This document shows, piece by piece, positions 2 to 18,077 of a stretch of 28,369 bases of DNA. The notes beneath the pieces are model-generated. The model was given only the letters and a program-made list of their open reading frames with translations, did no database searches and had not been told where the DNA came from. Made by a program: the position numbers and the translations under genes. Location of the stretch: NCBI GenBank assembly GCA_028712575.1, contig JAQTPU010000001.1, positions 1 through 28,369 of the forward strand, written 5' to 3'. Origin of the DNA: Candidatus Iainarchaeum sp. (lineage in GTDB: Archaea; Iainarchaeota; Iainarchaeia; Iainarchaeales; GCA-2688035). Within the stretch, counting starts at the first letter, position 1. The number at the start of each line of letters is the position of its first letter.

Positions 2-388
2 AAGTCGCCCTCCGAACTCCTGTTTGCAGACGATGTCGCAAAATGGGAAAAGCAGAAAAACTTCAATGTTTTTGTTTCAGTCGACATTCCCACCCGGAAC
101 TGGAAGGGCCATTCGGGCTTTGTGACAGACCTTATCGACAAGGCCGACCTGCCTGTTGAAAACACTTCCGTGCTGATGTGCGGCCCGCAGGCAATGATGA
201 ACATTGCAATTGCAAAATTCAAAAAACACGGCTTTAAGGCGGAGCAGATTTACGCCTCTCTCGAAAGGCTTATGCACTGCGGCGTGGGAAAATGCGGCCA
301 CTGCAACATAGGCAGGGAATATGCCTGCGTTAACGGCCCTGTTTTTTCAGGGCGGGAATTAGAGCAAATGCATCTGAAGGAGGATTAA
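2..388 (+). CDS. hydG: Group 3b [NiFe]-hydrogenase (sulfhydrogenase) gamma subunit, FAD/NAD(P)-binding with 2Fe-2S C-terminus; 5'-truncated by the window edge
   Basis: The frame is open from position 2 (KSPSELLFADDVAKWEK...GHSGFVTDL). It carries MCGPQAMM (NAD-binding CGP motif) and SLERLMHCGVGKCGHC...CVNGPVF (DHODB-type Fe-S motif), and lies upstream of the delta and alpha subunits. Confidence 0.9.
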   Translation, partial: KSPSELLFADDVAKWEKQKNFNVFVSVDIPTRNWKGHSGFVTDLIDKADLPVENTSVLMCGPQAMMNIAIAKFKKHGFKAEQIYASLERLMHCGVGKCGHCNIGREYACVNGPVFSGRELEQMHLKED

Positions 389-390
389 TA

Positions 391-687
391 ATGGCGGATG
401 AGAAAGAACTGCTGAAAAGGCAGGTCGGCTTTCTGCAGAAATCAAGGGCATCTGCGGAAAAAACAATAAAAATTTTTCAGGGCGAAATGAAAAAATTCGG
501 GCCGGGGGAACAATTTGAAAGCGCAAAAAAGGCTTTCTCCGCGGTAAAGGAAAGGCTCGATTCCATCGATGCAATGCTCCTGCGCGTGCAGAAAGAGCTT
601 GAATCAGCCCCCTCTTCAAAAAGCCTTTCTTCAAAAGGCAAAGCCCCGGTGAAACCAAAAAAAGGAAAAAAATCCAAAAAGAAATAA
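391..687 (+). CDS. Hypothetical coiled-coil protein with Lys-rich C-terminal tail, inserted in the hydrogenase operon
   Basis: 98-aa ATG ORF starting 2 nt after the gamma stop and ending 12 nt before delta. Helical heptad-like body and a KPKKGKKSKKK tail. Confidence 0.7.
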   Translation: MADEKELLKRQVGFLQKSRASAEKTIKIFQGEMKKFGPGEQFESAKKAFSAVKERLDSIDAMLLRVQKELESAPSSKSLSSKGKAPVKPKKGKKSKKK

Positions 688-699
688 CGGGAAATTCCT

Positions 700-1470
700 A
701 TGAAAAGCAAAAAAAAACATGAAAAAACAAGGCTGGGTTTTTTCTCGCTTACCTGCTGCGAAGGCTGCGAGCTTGCAGTCCTGGAATTAAACCGGGATTT
801 CGTAAAAGCCCTTGGTTTTGTTGAAATCCTGGAATCAAGGATGCTGCGCGAAAAAAACCCCCCGCAGGAACTCGACATTGCCTTTGTCGAGGGCAGCATT
901 GTGGGAAAAGACGACCTGGAAAAGGCGCAGAAAATAAGGGAAAGAAGCAGGTTCCTTGTTGCAATGGGCGCATGCGCGACAATTGCCGGAATTCCCGGCA
1001 TTAGGAATGCCCTGCCAGAAAAAATAAAATCCGCGCTTCCGCAGCGCGCAGTAAAAAAGCCGCTCGAAGCCGTGCATAAGCTGTCCGATTTTGTAAAAGT
1101 CGATTTTGAACTGCAGGGCTGTGCAATAAACGAAAAAGAGTTTTTGAAAGTGCTTGTCCAGTTCCACAACGGCTTTTTCCCGCGCCTTGAAAATGTCCCT
1201 GTCTGCAAGGAATGCAAGGAAAAGGAAAATCCCTGCCTCCTGCTTGAAGGAAAAGCCTGCCTCGGCCCTGCCAGTTATGCGGGTTGCAATGCCCTCTGCC
1301 CGTCCCAAAAGGCGCAGTGCATAGGCTGCAGGGGCTTTACAAAAGACGCGAATTTTTCAGCCCTGAAGCGTTTATTCAAGGAATTCGGCCTGACAGAAGG
1401 GGAAACAAAAAACATTTTCACATACTTTAACCCCGACCCGTTTGCGGAGGCTTCAAATGCACGGCAATGA
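700..1470 (+). CDS. hydD: Group 3b [NiFe]-hydrogenase small (delta) subunit
   Basis: SLTCCEGC, FVEGS, GACA, LQGC proximal-cluster motifs; C-terminal VCKEC...CLGP...GCNALCP...CIGCRG clusters. Confidence 0.92.
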   Translation: MKSKKKHEKTRLGFFSLTCCEGCELAVLELNRDFVKALGFVEILESRMLREKNPPQELDIAFVEGSIVGKDDLEKAQKIRERSRFLVAMGACATIAGIPGIRNALPEKIKSALPQRAVKKPLEAVHKLSDFVKVDFELQGCAINEKEFLKVLVQFHNGFFPRLENVPVCKECKEKENPCLLLEGKACLGPASYAGCNALCPSQKAQCIGCRGFTKDANFSALKRLFKEFGLTEGETKNIFTYFNPDPFAEASNARQ

Positions 1471-2755
1471 GCATTTTTCCCTGCATGACATTACAAAAAT
1501 AGAAGGCCATGCAAGCCTCGAAGTCCAGCTGAAAGACGGCTTTGTGGAAAAATGCGAATTCAGAATCAGCGAGAACCACAGGTTTTTTGAAGACATGGCA
1601 ATTGGCAGGAGCTTCGAGGAAATCCCGCTTATAATGTCAAGGATATGCGGCTTCTGCTGTTCCTCGCACCTGAATACTGCAGTAAAGGCATGCGAAAAAG
1701 CGCTCGGTGTTGAACCCTCGGAACAGGTTTTTTTGCTGCGCGAACTCTCCTCGAATATGGAATTCCTGAAAAGCCATGCCCTGCACCTTTACCTTCTGGT
1801 CCTGCCGGACTATCTTGGAAGGGAAAGCGCGCTCCATTTCAGCGGAAAAGAGCACCAGTATATCCACGACTGCCTTGACTTCAAAAAAACAGCGACAGAC
1901 ACCCTGAACGTGCTTGGCGCAAGGGCCTATCACACAGTGAACGTGAGAGTAGGCGGATTTTCAAAGTTCCCGAATGCGGAAGAGCTTGGGCACTGCATGC
2001 ACGACCTCGAGCACCTGCGCAAAAAAGCAATTGAAACAATAGAATTGTTTGCAGGCTTCCTGCCGGAAAAGGGATTCGACCGCAATGCAAATTACGCCGC
2101 ATTGTCGGGAAAAAACTATTCCCTGCTGGAAGGGAAAATCCTTTTCGGCAGCGGCACTGTTATTCCGGAAGAAAAATTCCTTGAGCATGTGGAAGAGTCG
2201 GTAATTCCCTATGCAACGGCAACACAGGCCAGGTTTGCGCAGAAAGAATATTTTGTAGGCGCGCTTGCAAGGATAAACCTCAACCAGGCCGAGCTGTACC
2301 ACGAGCCGAAAAAAATAATCAGGGATTTGAAATTGAAATTCCCGAACACTTCGCCATTTTACATTAATGCCGCACAGGCAGTTGAAATGCTCCAGGCCAT
2401 TGATTCAAGCATTGAAATCCTGCAGATACTCGACAGGATAAAAATAAGGCAGGAACCATTGAAAAAAACCATTCCAAAAGAAAGCACGGGCACAGGCGTT
2501 ACTGAAGCCCCGAGGGGCCTGCTTTTCCATTCCTATTCAATAGGCTCCGACGGCCTGATAAAAAAAGGCCATATTGTAGTCCCTACGCAGCAGAACTCAA
2601 AAAACATAGAGGCAGACCTCAAAGGCTTTATTCCGGGCCTGCTTTCAATGCAGAAGGAAAAGGCTGAACTTGAAATAGAAAAACTGATTCGGGCATATGA
2701 CCCATGCATTTCCTGTTCGACGCATTTTCTCAAAGTAGACTGGAAACGCCTTTAA
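1457..2755 (+). CDS. hydA: Group 3b [NiFe]-hydrogenase large (alpha) subunit
   Basis: KIEGH, L1 motif SRICGFCCSSH, EAPRG, VPTQQN and L2 motif RAYDPCISCSTH followed by a 9-aa C-terminal extension. Start taken at ATG 1457, overlapping the delta stop. Confidence 0.95.
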   Translation: MHGNEHFSLHDITKIEGHASLEVQLKDGFVEKCEFRISENHRFFEDMAIGRSFEEIPLIMSRICGFCCSSHLNTAVKACEKALGVEPSEQVFLLRELSSNMEFLKSHALHLYLLVLPDYLGRESALHFSGKEHQYIHDCLDFKKTATDTLNVLGARAYHTVNVRVGGFSKFPNAEELGHCMHDLEHLRKKAIETIELFAGFLPEKGFDRNANYAALSGKNYSLLEGKILFGSGTVIPEEKFLEHVEESVIPYATATQARFAQKEYFVGALARINLNQAELYHEPKKIIRDLKLKFPNTSPFYINAAQAVEMLQAIDSSIEILQILDRIKIRQEPLKKTIPKESTGTGVTEAPRGLLFHSYSIGSDGLIKKGHIVVPTQQNSKNIEADLKGFIPGLLSMQKEKAELEIEKLIRAYDPCISCSTHFLKVDWKRL

Positions 2756-3110
2756 CAGCCTCTTCAAGCGGCATTCCCTGCGGAACAGCAATAATGCGGA
2801 TTTTTTTTCCCCGCAATTTCCCTATTTTTTCAAAAAGCAGGAGCTCTGTTCCCAGGTCAAAATCATGCAGGGAAAAATTTTTTTTTTCCCGCAAAAACTT
2901 CAAATCGGCAAAAACACGGATTTTTTCAATCCCTTCCGCACAATCAAGAATCACAAGCTCATCGGGAATTTCTTCCAAATCGTTCAGGGATTCGATTTCT
3001 TCGAATTCAAATTTCCCGGATTGCCTTTTATTTTTCAATTCTTCCGCAGCCTTCAATGCGATTGAATCCCCTTCCAGCAGGCGGTTCCCGAAAACAAAAA
3101 CTTTTTTCAT
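2730..3110 (-). CDS. Hydrogenase maturation endopeptidase (HycI/HybD-like)
   Basis: VFGNRLLEGDSIA (GNxLxxDD-like), VILDCA and SLHDF motifs; adjacent to the large subunit. Confidence 0.85.
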   Translation of the reverse strand: MKKVFVFGNRLLEGDSIALKAAEELKNKRQSGKFEFEEIESLNDLEEIPDELVILDCAEGIEKIRVFADLKFLREKKNFSLHDFDLGTELLLFEKIGKLRGKKIRIIAVPQGMPLEEAVKGVSSLL

Positions 3111-3122
3111 GATAATAATTGT

Positions 3123-3143
3123 TTTTTAATTGTTTTTATAAAT
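3123..3143 (+). repeat. 21-bp direct repeat, copy 1 (TTTTTAATTGTTTTTATAAAT), containing a TATA-like box
   Basis: Identical to 3313-3333; the two copies flank the 132-bp palindromic element. Confidence 0.85.
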
Positions 3144-3145
3144 CG

Positions 3146-3277
3146 GCCTTTTCTTGAAAAGAACATTGCAAACTTTGGGTTTGCGACATTGAAAAGCATT
3201 GCTTTCGATGCAACGCAAACTTTGTTTGCATTGTGCCTCACAAAGCTTTGCTTTGTAAGGAAGCCTTGGGAAAAGAA
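3146..3277 (+). repeat. 132-bp modular palindromic intergenic element (REP/MITE-like), long copy 1
   Basis: Base-for-base identical to 17946-18077; contains four tandem short hairpins. Confidence 0.92.
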
Positions 3278-3312
3278 CAATTTGCTGATGCAAACTGGCT
3301 GAAGGAATGCGC

Positions 3313-3333
3313 TTTTTAATTGTTTTTATAAAT
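3313..3333 (+). repeat. 21-bp direct repeat, copy 2; likely TATA region of the EamA gene
   Basis: Identical to 3123-3143; lies 10 nt upstream of the EamA ATG at 3344. Confidence 0.8.
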
Positions 3334-3343
3334 TCATAATTCC

Positions 3344-4258
3344 ATGCTGTCGGAAAAAAAAGCCTGTTTTCTGGTCGTGCTTACCGCAATAATCAGCGGC
3401 TTCTCTGTTTTTCTCAATAAATTCGGTGTTGCGGAAACAGACGCAATCGCCTTCACTGCGCTCAAAAATACCCTTGTTGCAGTTTTCCTGATTTCAATAA
3501 TCCTGCTTGCAAAGGACTTTCCCTCCCTCAAAAGCCTTTCAAAAAAGCAATGGGCAAAGCTTGCGGCAATAGGCCTGATAGGCGGAAGCATCCCGTTTGC
3601 GCTTTTCTTCTCCGCCCTGAAACTCACTTCCGCGGTCAATGCGGGCTTTTTCCACAAGACGCTTTTTATTTTTGCAGCGGCATTCGCAATACTTTTCCTG
3701 AAGGAAAAAATAAGCAAAACCTTTCTCATTGCCGCAGGCCTTCTCCTGCTCGGCAACTTCCTGCTTTTCCCGTTTTCTGGATTCGGGCTTCCCGAACTTC
3801 TTGTTGTAACAGCGGTTATTTTCTGGGCAGCGGAAAACGTGCTCTCAAAGCACGTTCTTAAGGAACTGAACGGGAACACTGTGGCTTTCGGCAGGATGTT
3901 TTTCGGCTCCCTGATACTGCTTTTGTTCATTGCGGTTTCAGGCAGATTCGGGATTCTCACGGCAGTAAATCCAGTGCAATTCCAGTGGATTCTCCTCACT
4001 TCAATCCCATTGCTGTTATTTGTGCTTACATTTTACAACGGCCTGAAGCACATTCCCGTTTCAAAGGCAACCGCAATTTTAATGCTCGGCCAGCCGATTA
4101 CAATGCTCCTTTCTGCGGTTTTCATAGGCTCTGCTGTTTCATTCAGCCAGGCAACAGGAATTGCCCTCACTCTCATTGCAATTCTCCTGCTCTTCGCCTC
4201 TTCTTATTTCCTCGCTTTCCTGCGCTCAAAGGGTTTTTCTCTTGCCGCAACAAAATGA
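3344..4258 (+). CDS. DMT/EamA-family transporter (about 10 TM)
   Basis: 304-aa hydrophobic protein with two EamA-like halves; GGSIPFALFFSALKLTSAVNAGFF...FLKEKIS and YNGLKHIPVSKAT...QPITMLLS motifs. Confidence 0.88.
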   Translation: MLSEKKACFLVVLTAIISGFSVFLNKFGVAETDAIAFTALKNTLVAVFLISIILLAKDFPSLKSLSKKQWAKLAAIGLIGGSIPFALFFSALKLTSAVNAGFFHKTLFIFAAAFAILFLKEKISKTFLIAAGLLLLGNFLLFPFSGFGLPELLVVTAVIFWAAENVLSKHVLKELNGNTVAFGRMFFGSLILLLFIAVSGRFGILTAVNPVQFQWILLTSIPLLLFVLTFYNGLKHIPVSKATAILMLGQPITMLLSAVFIGSAVSFSQATGIALTLIAILLLFASSYFLAFLRSKGFSLAATK

Positions 4259-4967
4259 AACTTCGGCGCTGCAATTTGCATGCAGGTATTCCCTGGTTCC
4301 AAACGAACTCGGCTATTGCGGAAAAGAAAAAGCCTTCCTTGAATTCGGAAAATTCCTGAAAAATCCGGAAGAGAAAAAAATTCCTGAAATAAAAAACCTG
4401 CTCGGCTCCTTTTTCGGGCTGCATTCCTATCTTGATTTGATTGCACGCGCCAATAACAAAAATGTTTTTGACCCCGAAGTCCTGGAAGCATACTGGCTTG
4501 GAAACAGGCTTCTTGAAAATGTTCCCCGCGCAGGCATCAGCCGGGCAATTCTGCATCTTGAAAAATACGGCCTGCCGGAAAAAATTGCGGAACAAAAAGC
4601 CATTTCCCTTCCGGAAGGCGCGCTTCCGCACCATTCCCTTCACGTGCTTCACGTGAATTTTGTCACGCGCAAATTAAGGCCGCTTGTCCGGAACCTTTCA
4701 GACTGCCTTATCCAATGGGCGGAAGTCAGGGCAGTTTCAAACGGCAAGCTGCGCGTAAAGGGCATTGAATTAAAAGCCCTGAACAAAAAATTTGTTCTGC
4801 AGGAAAAAACAAAAACAATTGAAAACCAGTTCTCCCTGCTCCCTGAAAAAGGCGATTTTGTTTCAGTGCACTGGAAAAACGCAATCGAAATCCTTTCAAA
4901 AGAACAATTAAAAAACCTGCAGAAAACAACAATGAAAAACATTGGCCTTGCCAATCCGGAAAATTAG
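4255..4967 (+). CDS. DUF6390-like protein with HypC-like C-terminal domain; start ambiguous (ATG 4255 is out of frame, so a -1 shift or a CTG start at 4269 is needed)
   Basis: FACRYSLVPNELGYCG, EAYWLGN, PHHSLHVLHV and GDFVSVHWKNAIEIL match my recollection of the DUF6390 family. The coding frame begins at 4254 (AAT GAA ACT TCG...). Confidence 0.75.
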
Positions 4968-5125
4968 GTTTTTTCCACGACATTCCTGTGCTGCACAATC
5001 ACCCTGTCGCCTATTTTTGCCTTTATCAGGTTTGCGGCTTCCCTCTTTTCAGGGCCGTAATCAATAACTGCGATTTTCCCCTTCCGCTTCAATCCAACAA
5101 CTTTTCCTGGAACTGCAAGGCACAT
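4964..5125 (-). CDS. hypC: HypC/HybG/HupF-family hydrogenase maturation chaperone, short form (53 aa); not in the supplied ORF track
   Basis: Hand translation: MCLAVPGKVVGLKRKGKIAVIDYGPEKREAANLIKAKIGDRVIVQHRNVVEKT*. Canonical MCLAVP N-terminus; the ATG overlaps the upstream stop (TGATG). Confidence 0.9.
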   Translation of the reverse strand: MCLAVPGKVVGLKRKGKIAVIDYGPEKREAANLIKAKIGDRVIVQHRNVVEKT

Positions 5126-5397
5126 CAACGGCGCCTCCTGAAAGTCTGCCCCACTATCCTGAAAATTCCGCCAAGCCTTTCCAGCCTCCGCGCCCTTTTC
5201 AAATGCCAGCGGGCAATCGCATTTTCCTCCGCCTCTTTTCCGTCCAGCCTTTCGGCAGCGCCCATTGCTGTTGCACCCATGGCTTCAGCCGCCCCGTTAT
5301 GCGCACGGATTCCCGCTTTTCTTGCCGATTCCGCGCTTTTCACGTGGCTTGCTGCCCTCTTTTCAAAAAAACCCCCCTTTTTTTCCATAAAAAACAA
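5125..5397 (-). CDS. Hypothetical basic Ala/Arg-rich protein translationally coupled to hypC
   Basis: 90-aa ORF whose TGA overlaps the hypC ATG; AT-rich promoter-like region at 5400-5445 upstream. Confidence 0.6.
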   Translation of the reverse strand: MFFMEKKGGFFEKRAASHVKSAESARKAGIRAHNGAAEAMGATAMGAAERLDGKEAEENAIARWHLKRARRLERLGGIFRIVGQTFRRRR

Positions 5398-5667: not shown

Positions 5668-6866
5668 CTCCGGAGCACTTTGATGTCATTGTTATAGGCC
5701 TTGGCCCTGCAGGCCTGGTTGCATGCAGGACTCTTGCGGAAAAAAAAATTTCAGTCCTCGGCCTTGACAGGAAGCAGGAAATAGGCCCGCCGAAAAGATG
5801 CGCCGAAGGCCTGGGCCTTGCATGGTTCAAGCGCGCAAAATTAAAAATAAGCCCGGAATGGTGCGTCCACAAGATTTACGGCGCAACTCTTTTCTCGCCC
5901 AGCGGGAGTTCAGTGACATTAAAATCAAAAAAACTGCAGGGCTATATCCTTGAAAGAAAAATCCTGGAAAAGCACCTTGCAATGGATGCTGTGAAAAAAG
6001 GCGCAAAAATAATTGCAAAATCAGACGTAATAGAAGCAAGGCGCGAACCAGGAAGGGTTTTTCTCCGCGTGAATAACGGGGGAGAAGAAAAGCAGTATTC
6101 CTGCGGCATGGTTATTGCCTGCGACGGCATTGATTCGCTTATTGCAAGGCAGCTCGGCCTGAACACTACAAACAAGCTTGTTGATGTCGATTCCGGTTGC
6201 CAATATGAAATGACAGGAATTTCAGGCTACGACCCAGCTGTTTTGAATATTTATTTCGGAACCGACGTTGCCCCAAGGGGATATGCCTGGATTTTCCCAA
6301 AAAGAAAAGACACTGCGAATGTGGGCATTGGAATCGGCGGAATGCAGAAAGAGACGGCAAAATATTACCTTGACAAATTCATTGCTTCAAGGCAAGGGCT
6401 TGCAAAAGGCTCGGTTATAGAGGCAAATGCGGGAATAATTCCCGTAGGCGGGTTTCTGGAAAACATGGCAAAGGACAGCCTGCTTGTTGCCGGAGATGCA
6501 GCCCATCATGTAGACCCTGTCCATGGCGGGGGAATAGGGATTGCAATGGAAGCAGGAATCCTTGCAGCAAATGTTGCGGCAGAGGCAGTGCATAAAAAAG
6601 ACTTTTCAGAAAAATTCCTATCCCGATACAACAAGCTCTGGTATGAAACAAGGGGCAATGAATTGAAGAAAAAACTGAGGGTAAGGCACCTGCTTGAACA
6701 GTTGAGCAATGACGATTTCAATTACCTTGCGGACTCGCTTACAATTGAAGAGGTAATGAAAATCGCTTCCGCAGACCTTGACAAGCCGACAAAGCTGATA
6801 ATACTTGGAAAAAAACTAGTGAAAAGGCCCGGGCTTGCAAAAATAATGCTGAAATACCTGAATTAA
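5664..6866 (+). CDS. Geranylgeranyl reductase family flavoprotein (digeranylgeranylglycerophospholipid reductase-like)
   Basis: VIGLGPAG Rossmann motif, KRCAEG, IACDG, PRGYAWIFPK, VAGDAA...VDPVHGGGI; coupled to the ferredoxin. Confidence 0.88.
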   Translation: MTPEHFDVIVIGLGPAGLVACRTLAEKKISVLGLDRKQEIGPPKRCAEGLGLAWFKRAKLKISPEWCVHKIYGATLFSPSGSSVTLKSKKLQGYILERKILEKHLAMDAVKKGAKIIAKSDVIEARREPGRVFLRVNNGGEEKQYSCGMVIACDGIDSLIARQLGLNTTNKLVDVDSGCQYEMTGISGYDPAVLNIYFGTDVAPRGYAWIFPKRKDTANVGIGIGGMQKETAKYYLDKFIASRQGLAKGSVIEANAGIIPVGGFLENMAKDSLLVAGDAAHHVDPVHGGGIGIAMEAGILAANVAAEAVHKKDFSEKFLSRYNKLWYETRGNELKKKLRVRHLLEQLSNDDFNYLADSLTIEEVMKIASADLDKPTKLIILGKKLVKRPGLAKIMLKYLN

Positions 6867-6927
6867 GAATCCCCGGGCTGCTGCTTAACGGATTAATTAT
6901 TTAAACTCAAACTTGCCTGTTTCTTTC

Positions 6928-8034
6928 ATGCAGATACCGAATTTGACTCTTGCATATGCTGTTGCCGAATCCAGGCAGATAATTGAAACAAGCATGGTAA
7001 GGAAGGTTCAGGAGCTTGAAAACAACTGGTTAAAGGCAAAGCTCCATTCGAAGCAGGGCCAGAAAGACCTGATTATTGCGCCGCAGGCGCTCTTCCTGTC
7101 GGATTATTCCATTCCTGCAAAACAGTCCTCTTCCGGCTTCGGCGGTTTTTTGCGCAAGCACCTTGAAGGAAAAAAAATTTTAAAAATTTCACAGCAGGGC
7201 TTTGACAGGGTTGTTTTTCTGGAATTCCAGGACTTTTTCCTCATCCTCGAGCTTTTTGCAAAAGGCAACGTGATACTCGCGGACAAAAAAATGAAAATCC
7301 TCGGAGTCCTTCACAGGGAAGAATGGAAAGACAGGACACTGCAGAAAGGCTCCGATTACAAGGCATCGGGCTCAAAAGGCACTGACCCGTTAGACGCATC
7401 CCACGAATCATTTTTAAAATTCAGTTCTTCTGAATTTGAAATAGTAAAGGAACTTGTAAAAAATTTCAACATTGCGCCGGTTGTTGCCGAAGAGGCCCTG
7501 CTGGAATGCGGAATCCCGAAAGATGCGCCTGCAAAAAGCCTTTCACAGAAGCAATTCCTCCAGATTGCGGAAAAAATCCGGGAATTTTACACAATTGATT
7601 TGAAAAAAATCAAGCCTGTCATTGCGGAAAAAAATTCAGAACAGCTCATTCTGCCGTTTGAATTTGCTTCTGCAAAAACAACTGCGGGCTTCGGCTCCCT
7701 GCAGAACGCATTTGAAGAATTTTTTTCAAAGGAATTTTTCGGAAAAGAAGCAAAAAAAACAGGTTCCTCGCTTGAAAAAAAGCTTTCAGAATTCCAGAAA
7801 AGCCTTTCAAACCAGCTGGAGGCAAAAACCCGCCTCGGGGAAAAGGCAGCCCTCGATTCAAAAAAAGGCGAGGCGCTTTTTACGCATTACATTGAAGTGA
7901 AAAAGGCACTTGAAATTGCACGCGAAGCAAGGGGAAAGATAAGCGAAAAAGACATTATGTATAAGATGAGGATGTTTTCTTTTGTGAAGAGTGTTGATTC
8001 CAAAAAAAGCAGGTTAGTTGTAGAACTGGATTAA
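6928..8034 (+). CDS. NFACT/Rqc2 (aRqcH, FbpA-like) family protein, N-terminal half only
   Basis: GFDRVVFLEF and LILELFAKGNVILAD NFACT-N motifs, HhH region (NIAPVVAEEAL), first coiled coil. Ends at RLVVELD with no NFACT-R domain. Confidence 0.8.
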   Translation: MQIPNLTLAYAVAESRQIIETSMVRKVQELENNWLKAKLHSKQGQKDLIIAPQALFLSDYSIPAKQSSSGFGGFLRKHLEGKKILKISQQGFDRVVFLEFQDFFLILELFAKGNVILADKKMKILGVLHREEWKDRTLQKGSDYKASGSKGTDPLDASHESFLKFSSSEFEIVKELVKNFNIAPVVAEEALLECGIPKDAPAKSLSQKQFLQIAEKIREFYTIDLKKIKPVIAEKNSEQLILPFEFASAKTTAGFGSLQNAFEEFFSKEFFGKEAKKTGSSLEKKLSEFQKSLSNQLEAKTRLGEKAALDSKKGEALFTHYIEVKKALEIAREARGKISEKDIMYKMRMFSFVKSVDSKKSRLVVELD

Positions 8035-8107
8035 TCTGATTAGCCAGAATTAGTTTTTATTTAAAAGAATTGTTGGGAGGCAGAGCAGATTTTTTCCCTG
8101 GGTTTTA

Positions 8108-8166
8108 TTTTTCGCGTTAGCGAAAAACTTTCTTTCCCAAGGCTTTCTTTTCGAAAGAAAGGCTTT
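8108..8166 (+). repeat. Short member of the palindromic intergenic repeat family, between convergent genes (possible terminator)
   Basis: TTTTTCGC-GTTA-GCGAAAAA hairpin, then TTTCTTTCCCAAGGCTTTCTTT (22 bp shared with 9309-9330), then a CTTTCTTT-TCG-AAAGAAAG hairpin. Confidence 0.7.
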
Positions 8167-8452
8167 AGTCCGCTTCTGCGTTTGCCAATTCTCTTTCATC
8201 TACAATAAAAACATCGCTTACTGCAGTCACTGCAGAATATGGAATGTTCAGTGTCCTGCTTTTGCTGCCGAGCTTTCTTATTACCTTGCTGTCCCTGTCA
8301 AGCTCCACTATCAGGTAGATTATTTCCCCTGTGCGCTCGTCAACCATAAAATCAGCCAGCTTGCCGACTTCATCGCCCCTGTTTGTAATGACTCTCTTTG
8401 TAGCCAACTGCCTTGCAACAGTGTATTTGTACACAATTTCACCCCTTTTCAT
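8165..8452 (-). CDS. Stand-alone PRC-barrel domain protein (CdpB-like candidate)
   Basis: KRVITNRGDEVGKLADFMVDERTGEIIYLIV...IPYSAVTAVSDVFIV, a typical archaeal PRC-barrel pattern. Confidence 0.85.
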   Translation of the reverse strand: MKRGEIVYKYTVARQLATKRVITNRGDEVGKLADFMVDERTGEIIYLIVELDRDSKVIRKLGSKSRTLNIPYSAVTAVSDVFIVDERELANAEAD

Positions 8453-8679
8453 AATTAATTAACTTTTTTATTTAATTAATAAAACGCACTACTTCTTTAT
8501 AAATGTTTGTGGAAACGCGTTCTACATAAAGCTGCCCTGTCTTTTTCAAGGGCTTTTTTAAAAGCTTGCATTGCAAAAACATTTCCACAAAAAATTATTA
8601 TGAACTGCCAGATATTATTGAAAAATTAATGCTTGGAAACATATTTATTTGCCTTAGTGAATACTACTATTGTGGTTTA

Positions 8680-9243
8680 TTGCAAAAAAAATTGTTATTC
8701 GCAGCAATTGGCATGATTGCCCTGTTAATCATCCTGTTTGTTGTCATGCCTGCATTACTTTGTATAGATTGTGGTGATTTTCCCCCTATGCAGCCAACGA
8801 TGGAGGCACAAACCGCAATAAAATCAATTGCATCCAAGCCTGCAACCCCATACACCAGTAGGAACACGGTTTTTGGCCCAAACATAGAATCCTCGATTAA
8901 TACCAGAAGCATAGCTGAAGGTAGTGGCGGGCTTGTGTCTCTTGACATGGTTTGTGTTTCTGCGGGAGATTTTGCAAATGATCCAGTGAACTGGCCAGAT
9001 ACGAGTGGTAACATGTCTGTTGTGAAATATTCCGGTTCAAGCGCAAAGACAGTTTCTTTTGAAGCAATTTGCGATAAGGGAGATTTTATTTTTAAGGGCG
9101 GGGCAAACGGCTCAGGGCCCGATGACTATTTTGCCACGTATGACCCAAGATTGCAGATTCCTGGCGTTGATTGGAAAAAATGCCCCTGCATTGCCAGCGG
9201 AAGCCTGGAAATCTGTTGTGTCATAGCGCTTAAAAAAGTTTAA
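8680..9243 (+). CDS. Hypothetical secreted or membrane-anchored protein with N-terminal hydrophobic helix, Cys-rich
   Basis: TTG at 8680 after GTGGT gives MQKKLLFAAIGMIALLIILFVVMP. Contains VCVSAGDF and C-terminal CPC...ICCV motifs. Start is uncertain. Confidence 0.65.
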   Translation: MQKKLLFAAIGMIALLIILFVVMPALLCIDCGDFPPMQPTMEAQTAIKSIASKPATPYTSRNTVFGPNIESSINTRSIAEGSGGLVSLDMVCVSAGDFANDPVNWPDTSGNMSVVKYSGSSAKTVSFEAICDKGDFIFKGGANGSGPDDYFATYDPRLQIPGVDWKKCPCIASGSLEICCVIALKKV

Positions 9244-9345: not shown

Positions 9346-9436
9346 TTAAGCCTGTTTTTTCACATTTTTGTCTTGTTTTTAAGCCAGCAAAATAATCCTA
9401 AATAATAATTTAAATCGTATTGCCCCTATTGTGTGC

Positions 9437-10579
9437 ATGTCGAGAGCAAAGTTTTATAGTGAGGAAGAGCAACGTAAATTTTTTGCCTCTGCTAAGAAAT
9501 CTCTTAAGATGGGCAGCAGAAAGTTGTCAGTTATGTTGGGTTTGAAATCTCGCGGTGGTCTTGAGGGATATTCCTCGGCACGCACAGCCCCGCCTGTGGA
9601 AATAGTTAAAAAATTGGAAAAGCTGACCGGAGTAAAAGCCAATTATCAATTAGCAGGGAATAAAGTCTGTAATAAAAAAAGAGCTTTTTTGCCAATGGAT
9701 CCAGAACAAGCCCGAACTAATTTGAAGAAAGTATTTGGGAAAGACTTTTACTATTTGGAGACTTTGATAAAATCAGATTCTAGTATTACTGAAATAATTT
9801 CAAAACTTCGTGATAAGGAATATCATTTTGATAATTCCAACATTAGCCGCTGTATTGGTGCGTATAGAACAAATTTGTTGTCAAAAATAGTTGAAGAAAT
9901 TTCTGCAGGAGATAATGAAATTATTATTTCGGGCAGAGTGAGACAAGACAAAGGAACTTTGGCACTTACTTTTAACCTTCTTCTTTTGTATAAAATTTTG
10001 GCTCGCAAAGAGATTAGGGTGGGATTAGAGCTTGCGGTTAAAAGAGATAAAGTCAGGGTTTTTCCTCTTGAATTTGGCAGAAAGTTAATGCGTTCAAGCG
10101 GCGCGATAAAAATCTTGCTGACGGAAAAATCCGAGTTTTTGCCTAAATCAAAAATAAAGATAATTCTTAACCCTAAAAATTTTGGTTTCACTGATGTGGA
10201 AGCGATTTATGATTCTGATGCAAGAATTATTGCTAAACCATTACTGGAACAAGGTTTTATTTTGGACAAGAACAGGGGAACTCCTTTTAGCTTGAAAGGC
10301 GACCTTTCTTTGTATTTTCTGAATAAACATATCATTTTAGAAATAACCCGGGCAACTACATATCAAGCGGGCTATTTTAAAGTTGGCCAATGTTTTGTGC
10401 AGAATACTTGCTCGCCAGATTCACTGCAATTTTTGGTATGCCAAAGTTCGTTTTTAACAAAGGAGTGCATTAATGCTTTAAATAAAATTGGCGTCATAAT
10501 AATTGACACTTCGTTTGGGACGGGATGGGAAAAAGAAGTTGTTGGCAAGATAAAAAAGGTTGTTAAAAATGAATCCTAA
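9437..10579 (+). CDS. AT-rich protein with N-terminal Cro/Xre-like HTH and putative C-terminal PD-(D/E)XK nuclease domain
   Basis: RKLSVMLGLKSRGGLEGYSSARTAPPVEIVKKL (HTH-like). C-terminal GDLSLY..IILEIT....YFKVGQ resembles D...ExK motifs with a following GQ helix. Overlaps the taw1 start by 11 nt. Confidence 0.6.
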   Translation: MSRAKFYSEEEQRKFFASAKKSLKMGSRKLSVMLGLKSRGGLEGYSSARTAPPVEIVKKLEKLTGVKANYQLAGNKVCNKKRAFLPMDPEQARTNLKKVFGKDFYYLETLIKSDSSITEIISKLRDKEYHFDNSNISRCIGAYRTNLLSKIVEEISAGDNEIIISGRVRQDKGTLALTFNLLLLYKILARKEIRVGLELAVKRDKVRVFPLEFGRKLMRSSGAIKILLTEKSEFLPKSKIKIILNPKNFGFTDVEAIYDSDARIIAKPLLEQGFILDKNRGTPFSLKGDLSLYFLNKHIILEITRATTYQAGYFKVGQCFVQNTCSPDSLQFLVCQSSFLTKECINALNKIGVIIIDTSFGTGWEKEVVGKIKKVVKNES

Positions 10580-11522
10580 AGTTATTGAAAAATTAGGCAA
10601 AGAAGGTTATAGGCTTGTTGGCAGCCATAGTGCCATAAAAGTCTGCTTGTGGACAAAAAAAGCTTTGCAGGGAAAAGGGGTTTGTTACAAGGAAAAATTT
10701 TATGGAATAAGCAGCCATCGCTGCGTCCAGATGAGCTGTTCTTTGTTTAATTGCCAGAATAAGTGTATTCATTGCTGGAGAGACTTGAATTACACTGTTT
10801 CAGAGAAAGTCAAGAAACCCGATAACCCCGAAAAAATTGTTGACGATTGCATTAATGAGCAAAAAAAAATTTTACAGGGTTTCAGAAGCAATGAAAATGT
10901 TGCCGAAAAAAAATTTGCCGAGGCGATGGCACCAAAGCAATTTGCCATAAGCCTTACTGGCGAAGCGACCCTGTATCCTTTATTAAGCGACTTAATACTG
11001 GAACTAAAGAAAAGAAAAATAACCTCTTTTTTGGTGACAAATGGTTTAAATCCAAAGGCATTGGAAAAACTTTTTGAAAAAAATGCGCTTCCAACCCAGC
11101 TGTATATTTCTCTTAACAGCCCAGGCAAAAAAGCATACTCAAAATGGCACAACAGCAAATCTAAAAATGCTTGGGCGAAGTTTAACAAATCTTTAAAGCT
11201 AATGAAAAAACTGGGCAAAAAAACCCGGACTGCTCTGAGGCTGACACTTGTAAAAGATTTGAATATGATTGAACCTGAAAACTATGTAAAATTAATAAAA
11301 AAAGCTTCCCCTAATTTTGTTGAAATAAAAGCGTTTATGTCAGTGGGTTATTCACGGAAGAGATTGGGCTATGACAGAATGCCTTTGCATTCTGAAGTGA
11401 AATCTTTTGCAGAAAAGATTAATAATTACTTAAACTATGATTTTGCAGGCGAAAGCACTGAAAGCAGAGTGGTGCTGCTTTCTTCTGGAAAAAAGAAACT
11501 GAAAATTAAAAAGGATGATTAG
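10569..11522 (+). CDS. taw1: 4-demethylwyosine (imG-14) synthase Taw1/TYW1, radical SAM
   Basis: HSAIKVCLWTKK..CYKEKFYGISSHRCVQM, CQNKCIHCWR (CxxxCxxC), AISLTGEATLY, FVEIKAFMSVGYSR. Confidence 0.93.
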   Translation: MNPKVIEKLGKEGYRLVGSHSAIKVCLWTKKALQGKGVCYKEKFYGISSHRCVQMSCSLFNCQNKCIHCWRDLNYTVSEKVKKPDNPEKIVDDCINEQKKILQGFRSNENVAEKKFAEAMAPKQFAISLTGEATLYPLLSDLILELKKRKITSFLVTNGLNPKALEKLFEKNALPTQLYISLNSPGKKAYSKWHNSKSKNAWAKFNKSLKLMKKLGKKTRTALRLTLVKDLNMIEPENYVKLIKKASPNFVEIKAFMSVGYSRKRLGYDRMPLHSEVKSFAEKINNYLNYDFAGESTESRVVLLSSGKKKLKIKKDD

Positions 11523-13045: not shown

Positions 13046-16000
13046 ATGCAAAAAGAATTTTTCAGGCGGTTTTCGGTTTTTTTGCTCTGCATTTCGATTG
13101 TTTTTTTATCCGGCTGCATTTCTGAAGAGGCCTCCGAAACAGAAAGGTTTTTGTGCCTTGACCTTACAAACAGGCCGTTCGCCCTTGTCCCCAAATGCGC
13201 CTCGCAGGAAAAATGCTTTGAAGAGGCGGATTCGAGGCTGTTTGATTTCGACTCCGGCGTTCTGCCCTATGATTCGAGGTCAGAACTTGTTTCCCTGAAG
13301 AACAGCCTTGCCTCAAGCTGGCTTTTTTTCAACAAGGCCGGGGAAAACATCAGGGCAATAAATTCGGCCTGTTCTTCAGGCGGGGATTTTTCCGGCCTCG
13401 CAGGGCAGGTAAACGAGCTCAATTACAGCCTTGCAAAGGCATTTGAATTCTCTGACAAGGCGAATTATTCCGCGTTTTCAATTGTCTCTGCGGAAGAAAA
13501 AAACCTTGAAGAAGAAAAAATTTTCCTTGCAAAGGAAGAGCCATTGTACAATGATTTTGCCCTCATTAACCGCAACCTCAACGACCTGCAGTCGCAGAAC
13601 CTGGAATCCGGGACATTTGCAGGGGCATACCTCAAGGAAATGCACTCCCTGAATGCGCTTATGAAGCGCACAGGCTTTGAAAGGGATTTTATAGAGGAAA
13701 CTACTGCAATAGATTTTTTTGAAAAATATGCCCCTGACATCACAAAGGGGAAGGAGGCGGAGCGGGTTTTTAAGATTCCTTTTTTTGGGGATGCAATAGG
13801 TTCTTTTGTCTCTTTTTTGAACGATTTTTTAAAAATAAATTCCGCTTCCGAAGCCCTTTCAAAAATGCCTGCCTTTGAATACCTGCAGGCATACGGTTCC
13901 CTTGCAGGCTCGGAAAATTCTGCAATCAGCAATTTTTCCCTGCTTTTAAGGAACGACTGCCTGCACAGGCAGGCCCTCATTGAAAGAAACGCAGGGCTTG
14001 AACTGCAGATAACCGGAAAAATAAATTCGGCTTCGGAAAAAATCGCCCTGCTTTCCTCGAGCAGGCTTGCCTCTTTCGACGCAAACTTTCTGGCGGAGCT
14101 TTACTCGCTTCTTGGCCAGGATTCCGAAATAGCCACCCAGAAATTTTCAATCCAGGACTTTTCAAATTTCAGGGAAAAGGCCGTTGCAGAGCTTCTTCCC
14201 CTGTCCGCAAGGTTCAGCGAAACCAGGCAGAAGGATTTTTTGGGAACACTGCCCCTCGGCGAAGAAACCCTTTCCCTCAAGGAAATTGATTCAAGGCTCT
14301 CAAGCCTGCTCGAAAACCTCTCTTTCCTGGAAAACGAGTCGCTTTCAGGCCTTGAAGTCCTGTGCAGGGAAAGGACAAAAAAAATTTCCGCTTCAATTGA
14401 GGAGCAAAAAATTCCGGATTCCCTTGTTGTAAAGGCATCTGATTTGAAGGCGCGCATCAAGTTCAGGATTTCAGAATTCAATGGTTCAAAGGAAACCTAT
14501 GAAAGGCTTTTTTTGTGCAAGCGCACAATCGAGGAATTCAATGATTTCAGGCTTGCAGTTGAAGGCTTCGAGGAATACTCCCTGAAAGAAGAAATTATTG
14601 CGGAAGAATGCTTTTCCTTTCTTGAAAAAATCTTCTCTTCAGGGCAGTCAGCATTCGACCTGTCAGACTTTAAAACAAGGTTCCAGAAAATAAAAAACCT
14701 TGAAACCCGGCTTTCGGGGATTGAAAACAAGGGCAGCCTCTGCGCCTCCCTTGAAAGCGACACACTCGCTTTCCTGAAAGGAAATTACCGTTCTGTCCTG
14801 CTCAAAAAAGGCTTTTCAAACGCAAGGGAAAAGCTCGAAACGCTTGAAATAATAGACGGTTATTCGGAGCAGTCAGTGCCGGAAACCGCATTAAGCAATT
14901 TCCGCGAAAAAATTGCTGGCCTGAAAAAATATTTTTCAGGGGAAAACATAATTTTTGAAAAAGCGCTGCCTGTTTTTCAGGAGCTTGAAGAAAGCGTTTT
15001 TTCGCTTGAAGAATCCCTTGAAAGCGGGCTTGACAGTGTAATAGCGGTTTTTTCCTCAAAAACGAGCGCAATAGAGTTTTTTTCAGAGCCCTGCGAAAGC
15101 CAGGACCTGAATCTAAAGGTAAGGATAACTGCAAACAACCCTTTCAGGGCAACAGGCAGGATAGCCCTCAAAATCCCATTTGCTTATTCCTTCAAGAAGC
15201 TTGCCCTTCCGGAAAATTTTTTCCTTTCGGGGGAAACGCTTGCAATAGGCCTGGATTCCCTGCCGCTTGGAATTTCGTTTTTTGATTTTTTCGGAACACG
15301 GGAAAGCGAAAAAAAACAGGAAACCCAGCAGGCAGACGCCAACCAGGCCGCGAAAACAGCCTATCAGGAACCCGCTGCAAAAAAACCAGAAACAAACGCA
15401 GTGCAGGGGCCGGCAGTGCAGAAACAGGCCTCTTCGGATTATGCAAAGAAAATTTCCGGGCAAAAAGCCGGGCTCCTTGAAAAAACAGCTTCTTTCTGGA
15501 ACCAGCTTGTTTCGCTCAATGAAACTGAAAGCTTTGCAGAAAACCACGATTCCCTGCTTGCCCTTGATTCGGAAATTGACAGGAGCCTCGCCCTCGGCGA
15601 TTTCAACAAAGCAAACTCCGTTCTCTCTTCGCTTGAACAGGAAACAGGCTCTTTCACTGAAAAATCAAAGGCCTTCCTGAAAGAAAAAACAGATGCGCTT
15701 TCAAAAAGAATCGCCTCCTTTGAGGAGTCTGTTTCAAAAAAAATTCCGGAAAAGGTTTCTTCGCTTCTTTCAATTATTGAAAGCGTTCCGGAAGAAACAC
15801 TTTTCAAGCTCGGCTATGTTGCCCCTGTTTCAAAAGAAAGGCTGCAAAAAATGCAGCTGCAGCTCGGCTCGCTGAATTCGGAAAAGCTTGCGGAGCAATT
15901 CTCCAAGTTCAGGGGCCTTGTTTCAAAAGAAAAATTTTCAGATGCAATACTGGGCTTTTCGGAATTTGAAAAAGACCTTGCAAAAAAAGAAACAGAACTG

Positions 16001-16357
16001 AATTCAATGGGCTCGGAAGCGGATTCCGCGCTTTACACGCTCAAAGAGGACTCTTTTTCCGCAATGAACAGCGCCTCTGCAGCGCTTGACTCCGGGCAGT
16101 TCAATGCAGAGGCCCTTGACCTTGTCGGAAAGGCAAAAACCTATTTTGACAAGGGCCAGTTCCTGAAAACAATTGCGGTTTCAAATGCGGCGCTTGCAGT
16201 TCTCGCTGACCCAAAGCCTTTTTTTGACATTCCGGTTTTTTTATATCCTGTGCTTGCAGGAATCGCGCTGGTATTTGTTGCAAGGCACAAAAAAAAGCAA
16301 ATCCGCACTGAAAAAGAGCAGTTCAGGAAAATACTGCGAAACAGGCAGGCAGAGTGA
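13046..16357 (+). CDS. Large (1103 aa) helical cell-surface protein with lipobox-like signal and C-terminal TM anchor
   Basis: N-terminal RRFSVFLLCISIVFLSGC; long amphipathic helices; C-terminal FLYPVLAGIALVFVA followed by RHKKKQ. Confidence 0.85.
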   Translation: MQKEFFRRFSVFLLCISIVFLSGCISEEASETERFLCLDLTNRPFALVPKCASQEKCFEEADSRLFDFDSGVLPYDSRSELVSLKNSLASSWLFFNKAGENIRAINSACSSGGDFSGLAGQVNELNYSLAKAFEFSDKANYSAFSIVSAEEKNLEEEKIFLAKEEPLYNDFALINRNLNDLQSQNLESGTFAGAYLKEMHSLNALMKRTGFERDFIEETTAIDFFEKYAPDITKGKEAERVFKIPFFGDAIGSFVSFLNDFLKINSASEALSKMPAFEYLQAYGSLAGSENSAISNFSLLLRNDCLHRQALIERNAGLELQITGKINSASEKIALLSSSRLASFDANFLAELYSLLGQDSEIATQKFSIQDFSNFREKAVAELLPLSARFSETRQKDFLGTLPLGEETLSLKEIDSRLSSLLENLSFLENESLSGLEVLCRERTKKISASIEEQKIPDSLVVKASDLKARIKFRISEFNGSKETYERLFLCKRTIEEFNDFRLAVEGFEEYSLKEEIIAEECFSFLEKIFSSGQSAFDLSDFKTRFQKIKNLETRLSGIENKGSLCASLESDTLAFLKGNYRSVLLKKGFSNAREKLETLEIIDGYSEQSVPETALSNFREKIAGLKKYFSGENIIFEKALPVFQELEESVFSLEESLESGLDSVIAVFSSKTSAIEFFSEPCESQDLNLKVRITANNPFRATGRIALKIPFAYSFKKLALPENFFLSGETLAIGLDSLPLGISFFDFFGTRESEKKQETQQADANQAAKTAYQEPAAKKPETNAVQGPAVQKQASSDYAKKISGQKAGLLEKTASFWNQLVSLNETESFAENHDSLLALDSEIDRSLALGDFNKANSVLSSLEQETGSFTEKSKAFLKEKTDALSKRIASFEESVSKKIPEKVSSLLSIIESVPEETLFKLGYVAPVSKERLQKMQLQLGSLNSEKLAEQFSKFRGLVSKEKFSDAILGFSEFEKDLAKKETELNSMGSEADSALYTLKEDSFSAMNSASAALDSGQFNAEALDLVGKAKTYFDKGQFLKTIAVSNAALAVLADPKPFFDIPVFLYPVLAGIALVFVARHKKKQIRTEKEQFRKILRNRQAE

Positions 16358-17945: not shown

Positions 17946-18077
17946 GCCTTTTCTTGAAAAGAACATTGCAAACTTTGGGTTTGCGACATTGAAAAGCATT
18001 GCTTTCGATGCAACGCAAACTTTGTTTGCATTGTGCCTCACAAAGCTTTGCTTTGTAAGGAAGCCTTGGGAAAAGAA
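17946..18077 (+). repeat. 132-bp modular palindromic intergenic element, long copy 2 (further hairpins extend to about 18155)
   Basis: Identical to 3146-3277 at an offset of exactly 14,800; followed by GCTTTTTGC-TAAA-GCAAAAAGC and GCTAACGCGAA..GCTTCGCT. Confidence 0.92.

Follow-up and report, generated by a model that had tools for sequence, protein, structure and literature searches.

How is the metal centre of a [NiFe]-hydrogenase built in an archaeon in which the genes usually needed for this are not found? This question is raised by a contig of Candidatus Iainarchaeum sp. (JAQTPU010000001.1), which has been analyzed over its entire length of 28,369 bases (referred to here as the window) and which opens inside the operon of a group-3b-like [NiFe]-hydrogenase. 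To our knowledge, every characterised [NiFe]-hydrogenase depends on HypC, HypD, HypE, and HypF for its Fe(CN)2CO unit. In the window, the large subunit gene is accompanied by the genes of a HycI-type endopeptidase, a DMT/EamA permease, a DUF6390 protein, and a mini-HypC which lacks the conserved histidine (Table 1), and this set is a conserved accessory module of the adjoining hydrogenase. The module is probably the sign of a hitherto undescribed route to the hydrogenase metal centre.

An earlier note on this DNA, made from the sequence alone, had pointed to the protease, EamA, DUF6390, and HypC genes beside the hydrogenase, and these genes are all real, as seen from their hidden Markov model (HMM) matches and open reading frames (ORFs). 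The mini-HypC is indeed present, but it is encoded at 4964-5128 on the reverse strand and not by the ORF ending at 5397, where the note had placed it. The hydrogenase was described there as apparently intact, which is correct for the alpha and delta subunits but not for the operon, which is cut by the contig start, so that the beta subunit lies outside the window.

Hyp genes in the genome of the window and in its order

The assembly to which the window belongs (900,757 bases in 130 contigs, 78% complete, and 0.7% contaminated) encodes one hydrogenase, one HypC, and one DUF6390 protein. In HMM searches of this whole assembly no HypD, no HypB, and no credible HypA were found, the best match for HypE was only a 20-bit AIR-synthase-like protein, and for HypF only the universal Sua5, Kae1, and acylphosphatase pieces were matched. 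The absence of hypA, hypB, hypD, hypE, and hypF, reported in the earlier note for the window, therefore holds for all 130 contigs; no hyp set is found elsewhere in the assembly, and a canonical HypABCDEF system is not detected in it. Because the assembly is incomplete, the test of this absence must come from relatives.

A fixed set of 121 genomes from the same order is used for this comparison. The [NiFe] large subunit is encoded in 52 of these and DUF6390 in 44, with both present in 43 genomes. HypD is found in three genomes only (G072, G080, and G097), which are also the only ones with true HypE and HypF, and these genomes have neither DUF6390 nor an orthologue of the permease (using a threshold of E below 1e-15). 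When counted over the hydrogenase holders, HypD is present in 0 of the 43 genomes having both the module and a hydrogenase versus 3 of the 9 others, and neither HypE nor HypF is found in those 43 relatives. The module carriers without HypD, HypE, and HypF include G016 (one contig, 99% complete), G001 (99%), and G033 (96%, 10 contigs), and 24 of the DUF6390 carriers are at least 90% complete.

The permease orthologue is present in 49 of the 121 genomes, being all 44 DUF6390 genomes and five more (G023, G041, G086, G096, and G119), in which a variant protein, referred to here as capped HypC, and a small HypC are encoded beside the permease. The permease clade is therefore always paired, either with DUF6390 (44 genomes) or with capped HypC (5 genomes). 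Out of the 52 hydrogenase holders, 47 have the permease together with DUF6390 or the variant, three have HypDEF, and in two fragmentary genomes (G021 and G070) neither was found. The profiling of DUF6390 against the hydrogenase and HypD, as proposed in the earlier note, shows a strong co-occurrence of DUF6390 with the hydrogenase, and neither of the two results named there as speaking against the module, a complete hyp set elsewhere in the genome and no co-occurrence across genomes, was obtained. HypA is not generally lost with the module, as it is found in 18 of the 121 relatives, 13 of which carry DUF6390, and HypB is found in two relatives only.

Matches to HypE of 73-105 bits occur in many genomes; these do not track the hydrogenases and are therefore read as other proteins of the AIR-synthase family. 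The family of the window also has a second, divergent large-subunit-like gene, of which only the N-terminal 69 residues fit PF00374 well. It is adjoined by hypA in 6 of the 10 genomes of this family (for example at G095:C8:28190-31761 and G057:C9:24104-27405), and it was not found in the assembly of the window.

A cassette swap between shared flanks

The genomes G072 and G119 belong to one genus, and their hydrogenase loci are collinear on both flanks, as shown by the HypA proteins (about 68% amino acid identity) on one side and the HydD-HydA-protease stretch on the other (73-80% amino acid identity; 76.5% nucleotide identity over 1.9 kb). Between these shared flanks G072 has hypC-hypD-hypE-hypF and G119 has hypC, the gene of a capped HypC, and the EamA permease gene. 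Of all the arguments for the module doing the work of HypDEF on the same enzyme, this cassette swap is the strongest. When the corresponding comparison is made in two more genera (G080 with G045 and G089; G097 with G060), no common flanks are found, the cassettes being at different loci.

The capped HypC has a length of 160-235 residues. Its N-terminal part is helical and has a conserved cysteine; behind this part come an internal His-Cys and a HypC barrel in which the histidine is retained. G096 encodes it as a fusion with the small HypC. The small HypC accompanying the capped HypC has a cysteine or a glutamine at the canonical histidine place.

The DUF6390 protein has a HypC-like barrel

DUF6390 of the window matches profile positions 8-238 of 244 of PF19927, far above the cut-off of 25 bits. 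Its start codon is the in-frame TTG at 4242, and the resulting protein, ending at 4967, agrees with the public gene call; a frameshift or another problem caused by a non-AUG start need not be assumed, since the 241-residue product is obtained from this codon. The stop of the permease gene overlaps the DUF6390 start by 17 nucleotides. Ten residues are invariant in 53 homologues, down to 29% identity: Cys26, Gly27, Phe57, Ala83, Trp85, Gly87, Leu91, His131, Cys155, and His210.

The AlphaFold model (pLDDT 96.7) has ten helices (residues 6-155), a five-stranded barrel (residues 158-218), and a last helix (residues 220-237). When residues 153-237 are superimposed on residues 2-72 of HypC (Protein Data Bank (PDB) entry: 2z1c), 71 out of 71 residues are aligned with a Z-score of 5.4 and an rmsd of 2.1 Å, such that residue 153 of the model aligns on HypC residue 2. 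This chain, 2z1c_A, is the top match among 48,161 chains, the next ones being unrelated OB folds with Z-scores of 3.8 or less, and Foldseek concurs on the HypC fold (TM-scores by target of 0.6-0.82). The C-terminal domain of DUF6390 therefore has the HypC fold, an OB barrel with a C-terminal helix.

When compared with HypC, HybG, and HupF (PF01455; PDB entries: 2z1c, 3vyr-3vyu, and 2ot2), Cys155 and His210 of this domain are at the positions of Cys2 and the conserved histidine of HypC, and the sequence profile also puts His210 on the latter (E 0.009). Unlike in these proteins, the cysteine is internal rather than at a free N terminus, the score against the PF01455 HMM is below the cut-off (12.5 bits, E 0.14), and a helical domain of 150 residues is added. 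According to the model, DUF6390 is a HypC-derived two-domain protein having a new helical cap and an internal HypC barrel, in which Cys26, His131, Cys155, and His210 are likely to form a metal site.

One AFDB cluster (A0A7V5EYB9, 343 residues) combines a GntR-type DNA-binding domain and a complete DUF6390 domain in a single protein. This fusion suggests that the DUF6390 domain binds a ligand or metal that can be sensed.

The mini-HypC and its predicted pairing with DUF6390

The mini-HypC gene is convergent with the DUF6390 gene, with an overlap of four nucleotides. The protein passes the PF01455 cut-off of 28.5 bits and keeps the Met-Cys start of HypC (MCLAVPGKV). It differs from HypC, HybG, and HupF in having Gln45 in place of the conserved histidine (His51 of Escherichia coli) and in ending at residue 53, before the C-terminal helix, with only profile positions 1-45 of 65 being matched. 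This short form is also found in several Woesearchaeota loci. Cys2 is invariant in the HypCs accompanying DUF6390. The HypCs beside HypD in the order have the sequence VLVHVGF, with histidine at the canonical place, and those beside DUF6390 have glutamine there in 37 cases and Ser, Lys, Arg, Asn, Asp, Glu, Ala, Leu, Val, or Tyr in others, with histidine in only three.

For the complex of DUF6390 and HypC, the median prediction score is 0.34 and that of the best control 0.00; among solved complexes 58 of 80 reach the mark, as do 2 of 110 mismatched pairs, and since it is reached at 0.60 or under by only 7 of the 80 solved complexes, but by both of the passing mismatches, this score gives the pairing weak support and is treated as a hint, not as a demonstration of binding. 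Three prediction runs agree in that HypC residues 1-6 would face DUF6390 residues 23-27, 131, and 155. In this predicted docking Cys2 of HypC is set on a Cys/His cluster of its larger partner, as in the HypC-HypD scaffold of the HypABCDEF pathway, and DUF6390 also resembles a stand-in for HypD in its phyletic and positional behaviour. In sequence and fold DUF6390 is unlike HypD, having no Rossmann domains and no 4Fe-4S cysteine motif, and the module differs from the HypC-HypD system in being without HypE and HypF partners and in having a membrane permease.

The ORF at 5125-5397 on the reverse strand was rejected as a candidate HypC, as it has no family match and no homologue in any fetched locus. 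It encodes 90 residues, is rich in alanine and arginine, and directly precedes hypC on that strand, overlapping it by four nucleotides; it is probably not a gene.

The protease and the permease

The protease is very divergent from the HycI/HybD endopeptidases (PF01750; PDB entries: 5ija and 5ttx) and short, and it scores below the family cut-offs (17.5 bits for PF01750, with a cut-off of 23, and 22.8 bits for TIGR00072, with a cut-off of 47.45). It is like them in having the acidic/Asp/His triad of nickel binding, in adjoining the large subunit gene, and in that the large subunit has a cleavable C-terminal extension, which extends nine residues past the final histidine of the DPCxxCxxH motif. 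The triad residues, Asp15, Asp56, and His82, are invariant in 40 orthologues, and we take these to be the nickel triad of HybD and HycI. The top two PDB matches of a profile made from the 40 orthologues are 5ija and 5ttx, both at E 0.03.

The permease has two EamA repeats, matched by PF00892 in two stretches. Glu121, Glu164, Arg184, and Lys41, together with glycines and aromatic residues, are conserved in its clade, and these residues do not point to a particular substrate. The coupling of the permease to DUF6390 is seen in both archaea and bacteria, and the permease is missing from the HypDEF-type relatives. It most likely moves a small polar solute which would be needed for, or produced by, the route to the metal centre.

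Distribution beyond the order

DUF6390 is encoded by at least 591 species representatives, which span the Iainarchaeota, Micrarchaeota, Woese-/Nanoarchaeota, Altiarchaeota, Thermoplasmata, Patescibacteria, Chloroflexota, and Acidimicrobiia. The best 80 loci include 58 in which EamA and DUF6390 are direct neighbours and 50 with a large subunit within the fetched 10 kb; the same gene order is seen in the precomputed annotations of four further contigs. The link of DUF6390 with hydrogenases extends past group 3b, as in a Chloroflexota locus where it lies directly 5' of a small subunit and a 586-residue large subunit of group-1/2 type, and in an Anaerolineae locus where it lies between HycI and HypC, behind a complex-I-like hydrogenase of group 4 type.

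A large subunit is encoded in 47 out of 50 diverse carriers, and HypD and HypF are found in the same ten only, most of which are Acidimicrobiia having several hydrogenases. Among the other 37 are genomes of 3-7 Mb, and the five of these that were tested are also without a true HypE. One genome (G139) is used for these tallies alone, and leaving it out lowers them to 46 of 49 and 36. No cultured carrier is found in the 120 top-ranking DUF6390 clusters, out of more than 2,600.

Three loci have additional features. In the module-carrying Thermoplasmata genome of locus L107 (G156, C1:341447-342483), the HypD gene is split over several frames with three in-frame TGA codons, whereas the neighbouring HypF is intact; the HypD gene has either decayed or been misassembled from long reads. 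In the bacterial locus L123, a gene for CbiM, a protein of nickel/cobalt uptake, directly follows DUF6390 (10776-11435). In the Altiarchaeales locus L036, FeoAB and an iron-dependent repressor directly precede the EamA-DUF6390 pair (6592-8918).

Discussion

Since HypD, HypE, and HypF are not found in the module carriers of the order, the module most likely takes over the preparation and delivery of the iron centre. That it stands in for HypDEF is our own reading, and we consider it fairly probable. The earlier note had proposed that DUF6390 and EamA replace part of the Hyp machinery. This proposal is borne out in that they are tied to hydrogenases, are exclusive with HypD, HypE, and HypF in the relatives, and belong to the module that takes the hypD-hypE-hypF slot in one genus; it does not extend to the Acidimicrobiia, where DUF6390 coexists with HypD and HypF, nor to HypA, which is not generally lost with the module, being found in 13 DUF6390 carriers. 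The division of roles suggested in the note, into a scaffold and an importer, is tentative.

It is possible that DUF6390 and the His-less HypC share a Cys/His metal site and form a HypC-HypD-like scaffold for the iron unit, the mini-HypC laying its N-terminal Cys2 on the DUF6390 site, as predicted. Either HypC or the DUF6390 barrel would then hand the iron unit to the large subunit, after which nickel would be inserted and the C terminus cleaved by the HycI-type protease in the usual nickel-dependent way. The permease, translationally coupled to DUF6390, would move its small polar solute. More tentatively, and with doubt slightly outweighing belief for the proposal as a whole, there may be a widespread HypD/HypE/HypF-independent maturation of [NiFe]-hydrogenases (in DPANN, the Candidate Phyla Radiation (CPR), Thermoplasmata, and Chloroflexota), in which a HypC-derived scaffold (DUF6390 or capped HypC), together with a His-less HypC and a DMT permease dedicated to this route, would produce or acquire the iron-ligand unit, with cyanide and CO coming from another source or with a different set of active-site ligands.

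Several observations weigh against a replacement of HypDEF. No source of cyanide or CO is apparent in the module, which has no HypE or HypF, no radical-SAM enzyme, and no HypX, and the permease clade has no conserved cysteine or histidine. The fold of the N-terminal domain of DUF6390 is not matched in the PDB above the noise of helical bundles, either for the whole model or for the domain alone (pLDDT 92); the best matches are a 52-residue hairpin (Z 5.7) and acyl-carrier-like four-helix proteins (Z 4-5.5), and among the AFDB clusters only relatives of DUF6390 are matched, the GntR fusion being one of these. The GntR fusion hints at ligand sensing rather than assembly, and the complex score gives weak support. 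The assembly of the window is 78% complete, and many of the genomes are metagenome-assembled genomes (MAGs) that are 60-95% complete. DUF6390 coexists with HypD and HypF in 10 of the 50 diverse carriers, and in one Chloroflexia locus (L080) hypD-hypE lies 1.5 kb from DUF6390; DUF6390 is therefore not always a substitute.

The last two observations would also agree with DUF6390 being an extra, enzyme-specific chaperone of the HypC/HupF/HoxL kind, which holds or protects the large-subunit precursor or a metal intermediate without replacing HypD, HypE, and HypF, the HypDEF-less hydrogenases then being matured by something else or having a different or incomplete active site. The HypC-like fold and the lack of chemistry for cyanide or CO synthesis in the module fit this as well. 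We nevertheless regard it as unlikely, as it does not account for the strict exclusivity of DUF6390 and HypDEF in the order (HypD in 0 of 43 versus 3 of 9) or for the exchange of hypD-hypE-hypF for the module between G072 and G119, and the systematic loss of the histidine in the partner HypC points to a re-partitioned metal site and not to an add-on. The permease and DUF6390 could also be a supply or sensing unit for nickel or another metal, replacing HypB or a nickel transporter and chaperone. HypB is found in only 2 of the 121 relatives, a Cys2His2 site would suit nickel, CbiM and FeoAB are neighbours at the two loci mentioned, and the GntR fusion suggests ligand sensing. The swap, however, replaces HypD, HypE, and HypF, with HypA being retained on both sides, G060 has HypA and HypB alongside the module, both the fold of DUF6390 and its predicted partner point to the iron chaperone HypC, and conserved cysteines and histidines are missing from the permease, which together make a role in nickel supply quite improbable.

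The earlier note had also considered the scavenging of a ready-made cofactor from a host or a neighbouring organism, in which case the permease would import the iron-ligand unit or its precursor and pass it to DUF6390 and HypC. In agreement with this, the alternative cassette holds a transporter instead of biosynthetic enzymes, and many carriers are DPANN or CPR organisms with genomes of about 1 Mb. We know of no transporter for such an organometallic unit, however, and the module, or DUF6390 alone, is also found beside hydrogenases in Chloroflexota of 3-7 Mb that have no HypD or HypF, where the DUF6390-linked hydrogenases are without an adjacent permease. The module is therefore not confined to reduced symbionts, and uptake of this kind seems very improbable. 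Still harder to believe is that the hyp genes are present and were merely left unassembled or unbinned, the pattern being an artefact of incomplete MAGs. The 78% completeness of the assembly, its 130 contigs, and the cut operon would allow it for the window; it is contradicted by the 43 relatives with module and hydrogenase, none of which has HypD, HypE, or HypF and which include the one-contig, 99% complete genome, as well as by the 24 DUF6390 carriers of at least 90% completeness, HypDEF being readily detected in three relatives.

HypABCDEF are listed as necessary for the cofactor in a 2025 review (PMC12134894). The literature search returned no paper containing the term DUF6390, and none on Hyp-less genomes for hydrogenase maturation in DPANN, Patescibacteria, or Woesearchaeota. 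New here are the table of exclusivity across the order, the exchange of cassettes in situ, the capped HypC, with which the pairing of the permease becomes complete, the systematic loss of histidine in the partner HypC, and the predicted interface of Cys2 on the cluster. If a replacement of HypDEF by the module is true, it would be a second solution to the supply of the cyanide and CO ligands, an old open problem, and it would account for working enzymes in the many CPR and DPANN organisms to which a hydrogen metabolism has been attributed. The calling of hydrogenases in metagenomes would then have to change, as a check for the presence of hyp genes would wrongly reject the carriers, and a much smaller set of helpers could be used for heterologous hydrogenase production.

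Layout of the locus and other features of the window

Table 1. Positions of the hydrogenase and module genes of the window, and of four capped HypC genes at other loci (identified by their locus numbers)
Feature	Position	Strand	Evidence or remark
Hydrogenase gamma subunit, C-terminal 128 aa (HydG/ShyC-like; NAD-binding and 2Fe-2S domain)	2..388	+	Family match; cut by contig start
98-aa ORF between gamma and delta genes	391..687	+	Without family match
[NiFe]-hydrogenase small (delta) subunit, sulfhydrogenase HydD/ShyD-like	700..1470	+	PF01058, 79.8 bits; NF040836, 162 bits, below cut-off
[NiFe]-hydrogenase large (alpha) subunit, group-3b-like	1442..2755	+	PF00374, 115 bits; both Cys-pair motifs
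Hydrogenase maturation endopeptidase (HycI/HybD-like), 126 aa	2730..3110	-	Weak HMM match and invariant triad
132-nt repeat element in the protease-EamA intergenic space	3146..3277		Identical to 17946-18077
DMT/EamA permease, 304 aa	3344..4258	+	PF00892, 128 bits
DUF6390 protein, 241 aa, TTG start	4242..4967	+	PF19927, 116 bits
Mini-HypC, 53/54 aa (53 from ATG 5125)	4964..5128	-	PF01455, 33-35 bits
Capped HypC	L124:7289-7813	-	Beside permease clade
Capped HypC	L125:2046-2588	-	Beside permease clade
Capped HypC	L126:4598-5074	+	Beside permease clade
Capped HypC	L127:259-963	-	Beside permease clade

The motifs of the large subunit, RxCGxCxxxH (RICGFCCSSH) and DPCxxCxxH (DPCISCSTH), are intact, as read directly from the sequence. 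Its best NCBIfam matches, ShyA (262 bits) and HydA (247 bits), are both below the equivalog cut-offs, and the enzyme is therefore referred to as 3b-like and not as an equivalog. The group 3b enzyme of the Thermococcales is matured by HypABCDEF. When compared with the sulfhydrogenase-type group 3b enzymes of Pyrococcus and Thermococcus, the hydrogenase of the window is alike in its best family matches (ShyA/HydA for alpha, HydD/ShyD for delta, and HydG for gamma) and in its intact active-site motifs, and it is unlike in that the scores of its subunits are all far below the equivalog cut-offs. It is uncertain whether the 98-residue ORF is a member of the operon; nothing corresponds to it in related operons, in which the delta gene follows the gamma gene directly.

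Three long ORFs on the forward strand, at 13046-16357, 25149-26480, and 9431-10579 (1103, 443, and 382 residues, respectively), match no Pfam family at E 1e-4. The 132-nucleotide element is an exact direct repeat with no transposase nearby, and it is outside the function of the module as far as is known. The remaining genes of the contig are typically archaeal and include those of FttA/aCPSF1, a proteasome subunit, Taw1, NFACT, and a geranylgeranyl reductase.

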